From Escherichia phage XJA18-XJ-2024, in the sequence record PV584117.1: 50,572 bases of DNA; one strand, written 5' to 3'. The notes beneath the pieces were generated by a model, which saw only the letters and a program-made list of their open reading frames with translations, made no database searches and had not been told where the DNA came from. Below are positions 20,856 to 22,161 of the stretch, in pieces (positions within the stretch are counted from its first letter, which is position 1; every line of letters starts with the position of its first letter). A program made the translations under genes and the position numbers.

Positions 20856-21656
20856 TTATGACTCTTCTTCTTCGGCTGGCACAGCATCAAAAACATAAGT
20901 GATCGATTCTTTAGTTTTGCTGGCATCGTTAGCCGTCCAATTTACGATTACGCTACCTGCTGCATCTCCACCAATTGGAGTAAGAACGCCAGATTTTGGA
21001 TCTATTGTCGCAATATTTTCAGCATCAACAGACCACACGCCAGTTTTATCGGTGGCATTGTCAGGTTTTACAGCAACGTTAAATTGCACAGGTGCATTGT
21101 TTGGCTGAGGACTCTCCTTGTTAGTTGTAATCGTCGCGGACTCAACAAGAACCACGGGAGGGGGTGGAGGTGGAACAATAAAGGCATTTTGCTTAACCTG
21201 AACCTCAATAATGTACCCGTCCTCGTGCTTAACAAATCCACCAGCAAAAGTCCAACCTACGGAACCAGAGCTACCAGTAACAACACCACCAGATCCAAAT
21301 TGTAACTTTGAGAACAAGGCCGGAGCTTCATCAAGAGAAGTTAGCGTCCACATGCGACCATGAGAAACGACGTTGCAAACTTCACCGTCGAGGATTTTAC
21401 CGCTCAGGTGTTCATATTGGGAACGGAAAGCGATTCCGTAAGGTGTTTCACCATCAGTAAGCGTGGAAACAACCTTAACTCCGTCAACAATACCGATAAC
21501 TTTAACAGCGGAGCCGAACTCAATATCGCCTTGAGCAACACAAGATCCATCAATATTGTAGTTTGAGGTATCAGAAAGATTTCCCGGACACGCTGGTCGC
21601 AACATTAAATTTTCGTAAGCCATAATAATTTCTCCATAAAAAAAAGGACTATCCAA
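20856..21656 (-). CDS. capsid-associated protein with C-terminal Ig-like domain (decoration candidate)
   Basis: 266 aa; N-terminus paralogous to 21685-22161; poly-Pro linker then Ig-like beta-rich domain. Confidence 0.5.
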   Translation of the reverse strand: MDSPFFYGEIIMAYENLMLRPACPGNLSDTSNYNIDGSCVAQGDIEFGSAVKVIGIVDGVKVVSTLTDGETPYGIAFRSQYEHLSGKILDGEVCNVVSHGRMWTLTSLDEAPALFSKLQFGSGGVVTGSSGSVGWTFAGGFVKHEDGYIIEVQVKQNAFIVPPPPPPVVLVESATITTNKESPQPNNAPVQFNVAVKPDNATDKTGVWSVDAENIATIDPKSGVLTPIGGDAAGSVIVNWTANDASKTKESITYVFDAVPAEEEES

Positions 21657-21670
21657 AAAGGATAGTCCCC
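21638..21670 (-). terminator. rho-independent terminator
   Basis: hairpin GGACTATCCTTTTTGGATAGTCC with T8 on minus strand. Confidence 0.6.
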
Positions 21671-21684
21671 ATATTAAACGCTAA

Positions 21685-22161
21685 TTACAGTTGATGCAAC
21701 TGAACTTCAACAAGCTGAATGTCTTTATATTTGGTCCAGCCGCCAGCGTAGGTCCAAGTTGTTTCGATCGTACCATCAGACTTCTCTTGACCGTCAACGT
21801 CAAGTTTTACAGCGGTCCCGAAAGTTGGTGCTTCTTCTGATTTGGAAAGCATCCAAACTCTACCGGAGGTAATCACGTTGATAGCGCCGCCATCTTCGTA
21901 AACCATCTGATTATCTTTGTTCACAGTCTGCCAGTGAGATCGAATAGCTACGCCATACGGCACTTTAGACGATTCCATAGCCTTAACCAATTTATGGCCG
22001 TCAACGGCTTGGGCTTGAACAACCTGTACGGCAGCGCCAACAAAAACATCACCTTCGTTAACGACGCAAGCGCCATCAATATTATACTTCGAAGTATCCG
22101 CAACCATACCCGGAAGCGCAATAGCCATGTCTCGCTGATAAGATGCATTAATCTGTGCCAT
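21685..22161 (-). CDS. capsid-associated protein, paralog of 20856-21656
   Basis: 158 aa; shares N-terminal motif (xNIDGxCV...G...FG.AV.V) with the next gene. Confidence 0.5.
   Translation of the reverse strand: MAQINASYQRDMAIALPGMVADTSKYNIDGACVVNEGDVFVGAAVQVVQAQAVDGHKLVKAMESSKVPYGVAIRSHWQTVNKDNQMVYEDGGAINVITSGRVWMLSKSEEAPTFGTAVKLDVDGQEKSDGTIETTWTYAGGWTKYKDIQLVEVQLHQL

Follow-up and report, generated by a model that had tools for sequence, protein, structure and literature searches.

Two adjacent minus-strand genes of Escherichia phage XJA18-XJ-2024 (record PV584117.1; the window, below, is the whole stretch of 50,572 nucleotides that was analysed) were identified with high confidence, both in identity and in structural role, as encoding the two capsid cement (decoration) proteins of a T1-like siphophage. 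The assignment was made because the proteins are paralogous, both belong to PF22758, their orthologues have solved structures, the gene order is that of T1 and the fold matches. The 158-aa protein would form the bulk cement of the shell. The 255-aa protein would be a diverged duplicate of the same module, present as one gp48-type subunit per heterotrimer and carrying, on a hexaproline linker, a Big_2 Ig-like domain that projects from the shell. An earlier sequence-only reading had named the pair as candidate decoration proteins, and this was borne out: both are members of PF22758, and their T1 orthologues, 92% and 78% identical respectively, have been built into a capsid cryo-EM map. The decoration-protein interpretation is thus correct and has been in print since 2025, from phages whose versions of the two proteins are 78-92% identical. 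The conserved position of a terminator, the occurrence of zero, one or two Ig domains and the divergence of the Ig segment go beyond the published description.

Two cement protein genes in a T1-like head module

The window represents the genome of a Tunavirus (T1-like, Drexlerviridae). A megablast search with 19700-23400 matched 94 phage records, the best of which were 98% identical over the full length, and every match was a member of the genus Tunavirus (family Drexlerviridae), either a T1-like coliphage or a Shigella phage. On the minus strand the genes for the small and large terminase subunits, the portal, a Mu-F-like head morphogenesis protein and the head protease/scaffold are followed by the 158-aa and 255-aa cement genes, the major capsid gene and the neck and tail genes. 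The succession of protease, gp49, terminator, gp48 and capsid gene is identical in T1. The location between scaffold and capsid genes, noted previously, was confirmed. The pair is flanked by the head maturation protease/scaffold gene (22173..23285, minus strand; T1 gp50 orthologue; DUF2213, E 9e-26; PHROG 530, E 9e-110) and the major capsid protein gene (19805..20764, minus strand; T1 gp47 orthologue; PF09950, E 2e-62; PHROG 264), and a PF22758 gene therefore stands next to the capsid gene in the head module. In T1 the major capsid protein is the binding partner of the cement trimers (PMC11945409).

Several gene boundaries in the region were revised or noted. The protease/scaffold gene is likely to start at ATG 23285 (370 aa, MKAKQRF...) and not at TTG 23330; its annotated counterparts in relatives are 1113 nt, shorter than the mechanical ORF 22173-23330. 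The portal ORF (24039-25349, minus strand) has a mechanical start at TTG 25349 and exceeds the length of the annotated orthologue (1284 nt), the start of the gene probably being the internal ATG at ~25322 (MKIVKHD...). Directly after the capsid gene lies a small conserved gene of 95 aa (19468-19755, minus strand; DUF7444, PHROG 2716), which is the orthologue of T1 gp46 and has a terminator on each side; the published T1 virion structure contains no model of gp46 (PMC11945409). Plus-strand ORFs across the region (for example 21934-22278 and 20899-21108) were rejected as spurious, being short and antisense to genes with structurally solved orthologues.

The two cement proteins were compared by BLASTP, which aligned the 158-aa protein with the second ORF at 38% identity and 61% positives over 144 aa (E 2e-30). 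Both exceeded the Pfam gathering thresholds for PF22758 (Phage_cement) and PF23982 (XM1_gp53). The sequence-only reading had proposed a shared N-terminal module with the motif NIDG-x-CV...G...FG-AV-V. The motif was found in both ORFs, as YNIDGACV...VGAAVQVV in the 158-aa ORF and YNIDGSCV...FGSAVKVI in the second, and the pairwise alignment that it had called for left the similarity clear, but the term N-terminal did not hold, since what is shared is a whole module of ~150 aa, essentially the entire 158-aa protein. The YNIDGxCV and G-AV-V motifs were among the invariant columns in an alignment of 30 homologues. Elsewhere in the window no further copy of the cement module or of the Ig domain was found by BLASTP at E < 0.3, the tail tube Ig included.

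The first gene (21685..22161, minus strand) encodes the major cement protein, the orthologue of T1 gp49, as judged from Pfam, PHROG and PDB matches. Its product matched PF22758 with E 4e-29 and 102 bits (gathering threshold 27 bits) and PHROG 1989 with E 2e-65. A phmmer search of the PDB returned 9kmg_a, 'Decoration protein / cement protein II' (E 2e-95), and the same sequence recurs in 9kmh and 9kzj, so that the FCWL1 chain and the T1 gp49 chain are one distinct sequence. Identity to T1 gp49 was 91.8% in a gap-free global alignment, and a beta-tulip fold is predicted for the protein from this relationship. Together with the second protein it forms a pair orthologous to T1 gp49/gp48, with full-length identity to both and conserved synteny.

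For the second gene, previously placed on an ORF beginning at TTG 21656 (266 aa), the minus-strand ORF was upheld and its start was moved. Translation almost certainly begins at ATG 21623, giving a gene at 20856..21623 and a protein of 255 aa. This start was adopted because TTG 21656 falls within a terminator hairpin (21670..21644), GGAG is located 8 nt upstream of ATG 21623, the solved T1 and FCWL1 PDB chains begin at MAYENL (the alignment starting at M12 of the 266-aa ORF), and RefSeq annotations of relatives also start at MAYENL, with a 768-nt CDS in ISF002, SA12KD and T1. The same spurious N-terminal extension was seen in a few database gene calls (P0003 and P0026 in the homologue alignment).

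The 255-aa protein is the minor, Ig-bearing cement protein, the orthologue of T1 gp48 and FCWL1 gp29 by PDB matches and CDS annotation (20856..21623, minus strand). It consists of a cement (beta-tulip) module (residues 1-153; 21165..21623), recognised by PF22758 (E 3e-16) and by paralogy to the 158-aa protein, a hexaproline linker (residues 151-156; 21156..21173) read directly from the sequence as IVPPPPPPVV, a Big_2 Ig-like beta-sandwich (residues ~160-247; 20883..21146), assigned by PF02368 and fold prediction, and an acidic tail, VPAEEEES. The PF22758 score of the 255/266-aa protein was 60.2 bits, again above the gathering threshold of 27 bits, and it too belongs to PHROG 1989. The best PDB matches in phmmer were 9kzj_H ('BIG2 domain-containing protein', E 3.5e-135) and 9kmh_ak ('Decoration protein gp29', E 2e-134). 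Identity to T1 gp48 was 78.4% in a gap-free global alignment and 90.2% for the cement module (gp48 residues 1-153). The poly-proline linker and Ig-like domain attributed earlier to this ORF were both verified, PPPPPP being legible in the translation and Big_2 scoring 27.3 bits against a gathering score of 22.8 (residues 174-249 of the 266-aa ORF).

The 255-aa protein was modelled with AlphaFold2 from the alignment of 30 homologues; the model had a mean pLDDT of 87 and showed two beta domains joined by a lower-confidence linker, pLDDT falling to 73-75 across residues 141-160. Structure prediction had been suggested as a check on the Ig-like fold, and the domain was modelled as all-beta with seven strands and a pLDDT of ~95. 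The top Foldseek match in the PDB was T1 9kzj_H (E 8e-21, TM 0.88 normalised to target; module, residues 1-150), followed by FCWL1 9kmh_ak (TM 0.91 normalised to target) and then by chains of the 158-aa paralogue. Pam3 8hdt_G was matched both by the model (E 4.5e-4) and by PDB sequence search. The PF22758 beta-tulip fold of ~150 residues was thus recovered in the 255-aa protein, for which alone a model was tested. For the C-terminal part, matches were returned to Big_2 domains of a Paenibacillus glucanase (7quz, E 4e-5) and to Ig-like domains of two tail tube proteins, T5 pb6 (5ngj; rmsd 1.7 A over 93 columns) and that of DT57C, and the domain is accordingly Big_2 by both score and fold.

Capsid position and variation of the Ig-like domain

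The structural role was read from solved structures of close orthologues. PDB 9KZJ is a cryo-EM structure of the phage T1 capsid. For the T1-like phage FCWL1 the capsid (9KMG) and the portal vertex (9KMH) have been deposited, work reportedly described by Cai et al. in Structure in 2025 (pmid 39914381). The T1 capsid contains 415 copies of gp47, 80 homotrimers of gp49 and 60 gp48(1)gp49(2) heterotrimers (PMC11945409; Chen et al., Viruses 2025). In T1, gp48 therefore replaces one subunit in 60 of 140 trimers and gp49 supplies two of the three heterotrimer subunits, amounting to 360 gp49 and 60 gp48 per particle, or 6:1 (PMC11945409 trimer counts). Both modules adopt a beta-tulip fold like that of lambda gpD; the extended N-terminus of gp49 is buried and reaches the inner surface of the shell, whereas gp48 binds the outer capsid surface only and its C-terminus appears as weak, protruding, flexible density (PMC11945409). 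The fold, the trimeric state, the capsid position and the 360:60 stoichiometry are shown by these structures for the orthologues, and by homology the window proteins are expected to share them, forming virion trimers on threefold and quasi-threefold axes as read from the T1 and FCWL1 cryo-EM maps.

A projecting Ig-like domain would give weak, reversible adhesion to host or environmental surfaces. The T1 authors suggest that the protruding part of gp48 might help the phage to adsorb, a role also proposed for T5 and crAss001 (PMC11945409), and by analogy with proposals for T4 Hoc and T5 an adhesive role is tentatively put forward for the window domain. The domain may instead be non-adhesive, serving to space the structure, to assist folding or to restrict incorporation sterically to one copy per trimer, which we consider unlikely. 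The weak and flexible Ig density in T1 (PMC11945409) is compatible with such a role, as is the retention of a second paralogue that has no Ig domain in the Tempevirinae, namely TLS hdeC (146 aa; L006 3024-3464) and haarsle gp22 (144 aa; L008 3059-3493), which indicates that the duplicated cement module has a function of its own. A passive role agrees less well with the purifying selection on the Ig segment (omega 0.19, below), with the retention or doubling of the domain in many lineages and with its resemblance to the Ig domains exposed on phage tail tubes and on Hoc-type proteins, which have been proposed to bind surfaces. The label 'IgG-domain-containing' given to TLS hdeC does not fit its length, which is too small for such a domain.

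The distribution of the family was assessed by tblastn with the 158-aa protein, which gave matches at 1144 places in 840 phage records; many relatives, therefore, but not all, carry two copies. NJS1 and BEK1-1 have one cement copy each. The number of Ig domains in homologues of the 255-aa protein varied with their length, with none at 162-181 aa, one at ~255 aa and two at 336-346 aa, the tandem arrangement occurring in some T1-like phages such as NorthRox and vB_Eco_Sip (set P0007-P0010, P0033, P0037), and the hexaproline linker was kept in most homologues in the alignment. In a neighbour-joining tree of first-position, second-position and single-copy genes, the first-position genes grouped with the single-copy genes and the second-position genes lay on long branches. 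This topology fits one old duplication, although a crude tree of this kind is too weak to prove it.

Divergence between the window and T1 was calculated by the Nei-Gojobori method. Values were obtained for the 158-aa gene (dS 0.70, dN 0.062, omega 0.09), the cement module of the 255-aa gene (dS 0.54, dN 0.049, omega 0.09) and the major capsid protein gene (dS 0.53, dN 0.018, omega 0.03). The Ig segment (residues 166-255) gave a dS of 1.71, a dN of 0.32 and an omega of 0.19; it is only 57-61% identical to that of T1 and its synonymous divergence is ~3 times that of the cement module. Nucleotide identity to T1 falls from ~0.85 to ~0.62 downstream of nt ~500 of the gene (20856-21365 compared with L003 14282-15049). 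The drop begins near the proline-linker codons and resembles a recombination breakpoint at a domain boundary.

Both cement modules and the Ig segment are under purifying selection (omega 0.09 to 0.19). Positive selection as the cause of the faster divergence of the Ig domain was ruled out by its omega of 0.19 and by synonymous divergence that is also ~3 times higher. Because dS is raised ~3-fold and omega lies well below 1, these data suggest that an older Ig allele, itself under purifying selection, was exchanged at or near the proline linker, a better fit than adaptation in place. The Ig segment might, more generally, be an exchangeable cassette, a proposal that we advance with some reserve.

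Copy number and the terminator between the paralogues

The Ig-bearing paralogue could be confined to a special vertex, for example to the five trimers that surround the portal, marking or stabilising the portal vertex in place of occupying 60 quasi-threefold sites. In the PDB copy, FCWL1 gp29 is present as five chains in the portal-vertex composite 9KMH only, and is not listed for the icosahedral 9KMG; its number and location may have been modelled in another way for that phage. Five chains in a C5 vertex map amount, however, to a single copy in each asymmetric unit, a number that agrees with 60 copies as well, and the counts of the 158-aa chain (43 over the three entries) are compatible with 6:1 in 9KMH. 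The T1 paper gives 60 heterotrimers (PMC11945409) and 9KZJ contains one gp48 chain per asymmetric unit. Confinement to the vertex was on these grounds judged very improbable, and distribution over the quasi-threefold sites is preferred. That the similarity of the two proteins is due to chance or low complexity, or that one ORF is a non-functional pseudogene, is refuted by an E value of 2e-30 over the whole module, by intact ORFs with Shine-Dalgarno sequences, by purifying selection (omega 0.09 in both) and by the orthologues of both built into experimental capsid maps.

An intrinsic-terminator-like hairpin followed by U8 was detected between the two genes by terminator scan and RNA folding (21636..21670, minus strand). 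The hairpin itself (21670..21644) reads GGGGACUAUCC-UUUUU-GGAUAGUCC, with an 11-bp stem, GGGGACUAUCC, and a 5-nt loop ahead of the U8 tract. It folded with -17.8 kcal/mol (z -4.0), and none of 200 shuffled sequences folded as well. In T1 and SA12KD this element appears in the annotation as a rho-independent terminator. A terminator was found at the same position in all four of the other paired genomes examined: T1 (L003 14235-14267), TLS (L006 2985-3006), Klebsiella phage K50 (L007 ~2986-3008) and Hanrivervirus haarsle (L008 ~3020-3037). In TLS, K50 and haarsle the stop codon of the first gene is followed by a GC-rich hairpin with a U-tract and then by the ribosome-binding site of the second gene; each has a stem of a different sequence, and the position is kept across Drexlerviridae subfamilies. 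A scan of the window found no promoter-like site between the hairpin and the second gene.

Transcription of the Ig-bearing gene mainly or only by read-through of this terminator would help to give the ~6:1 protein ratio, and the terminator may contribute to setting the copy ratio in this manner. It may otherwise represent ancestral operon punctuation behind which the duplicate was inserted, because a terminator also follows the sole cement gene in the single-copy Webervirus NJS1 and the Braunvirinae phage BEK1-1 (L004, L005). The wider proposition, that the terminator sets a ~6:1 ratio for exactly 60 heterotrimers and that the Ig domain is an exchanged cassette of zero, one or two copies tuning adhesion or host range, is doubtful; if it is true, capsid stoichiometry would be governed by simple attenuation of transcription, in combination with an adhesion module that can be swapped.

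A second terminator-like hairpin was observed between the stop codon of the Ig-bearing gene and the start of the capsid gene (20789-20843, minus strand), where it abuts a sigma-70-like promoter. The promoter reads TTGACG, 16 nt, TG-TATTAT (10/12 matches, extended -10), and the hairpin is composed of GAAGCCGUGA, a 6-nt loop and UCACGGCUUU, and is followed by a U-rich stretch. The predicted transcription start lies within the 5' arm of the hairpin, so that transcripts from upstream could terminate here while capsid-gene transcripts initiated at the promoter escape. The arrangement is conserved in T1 and is annotated likewise in SA12KD.

Annotation and comparison with known systems

In many database records the two proteins are simply 'hypothetical'; other names for the orthologues are 'Scaffolding protein SbcC like', 'putative zonula occludens toxin' and 'capsid and scaffold protein'. 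With the exception of the cement label of P0023, these other names look like propagated mis-annotations, and the records can be re-labelled confidently as major and Ig-bearing minor capsid cement proteins. P0023 is entered as 'structural cement protein Gp24 [Ralstonia pseudosolanacearum]' on a 30.8-kb contig; the Ralstonia assignment is likely to reflect phage contamination or mis-assignment. Beyond annotation the significance is small. The pair illustrates clearly how gene duplication can yield a heterotrimeric decoration complex, and for the engineering of T1-like phages the variable, flexible Ig-like domain at the end of its proline linker offers a natural place for display. The terminator and stoichiometry, and the exchange of Ig cassettes, are modest side questions.

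The closest known system is T1 gp49/gp48, with which the window pair shares orthology, gene order, protein lengths of 158 and 255 aa, the inter-gene terminator, the hexaproline linker and the Big_2 domain. The Ig-like segment is a different allele in the window and nothing else differs in kind. In FCWL1 the 158-aa chain is 91.8% identical to the window protein and gp29 matches the 255-aa protein; the same difference in Ig allele applies, and the 255-aa protein is deposited in the portal-vertex entry only.

The proteins after which the Pfam families are named, Pseudomonas phage E217 gp24 and cyanophage Pam3 gp6 (PF22758) and Vibrio phage XM1 gp53 (PF23982), belong to the same sequence family and share its fold as trimeric threefold cement. 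E217, Pam3 and XM1 have the myophage type of virion, and a single cement protein is cited in the name of each Pfam family. In the window the gene is duplicated, one copy is fused to an Ig domain and heterotrimers are expected.

Lambda has one such species, gpD, which is homotrimeric and lacks an Ig domain. It resembles the window proteins in occupying, as a trimeric cement, the threefold and quasi-threefold positions of a T=7 capsid with the HK97 fold, and in its analogous beta-tulip (PMC11945409). In proteins of the T1 type the N-terminus extends to the inside of the shell, which it does not do in earlier cement proteins (PMC11945409). Neither Pfam (E <= 0.1) nor the PDB sequence search (E <= 1) yielded a gpD match, and the resemblance to gpD is one of function and fold only.

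T4 Hoc binds the centres of hexamers as a monomer. T4 Hoc and T5 pb10 resemble the 255-aa protein in that a capsid anchor displays one or more flexible Ig-like domains, the number of which varies between relatives. The anchoring module of Hoc is unrelated to that of the window protein, whose anchor is a subunit of a cement trimer; searches of Pfam and PHROGs gave no Hoc match, and only the principle of Ig display is common to the two.
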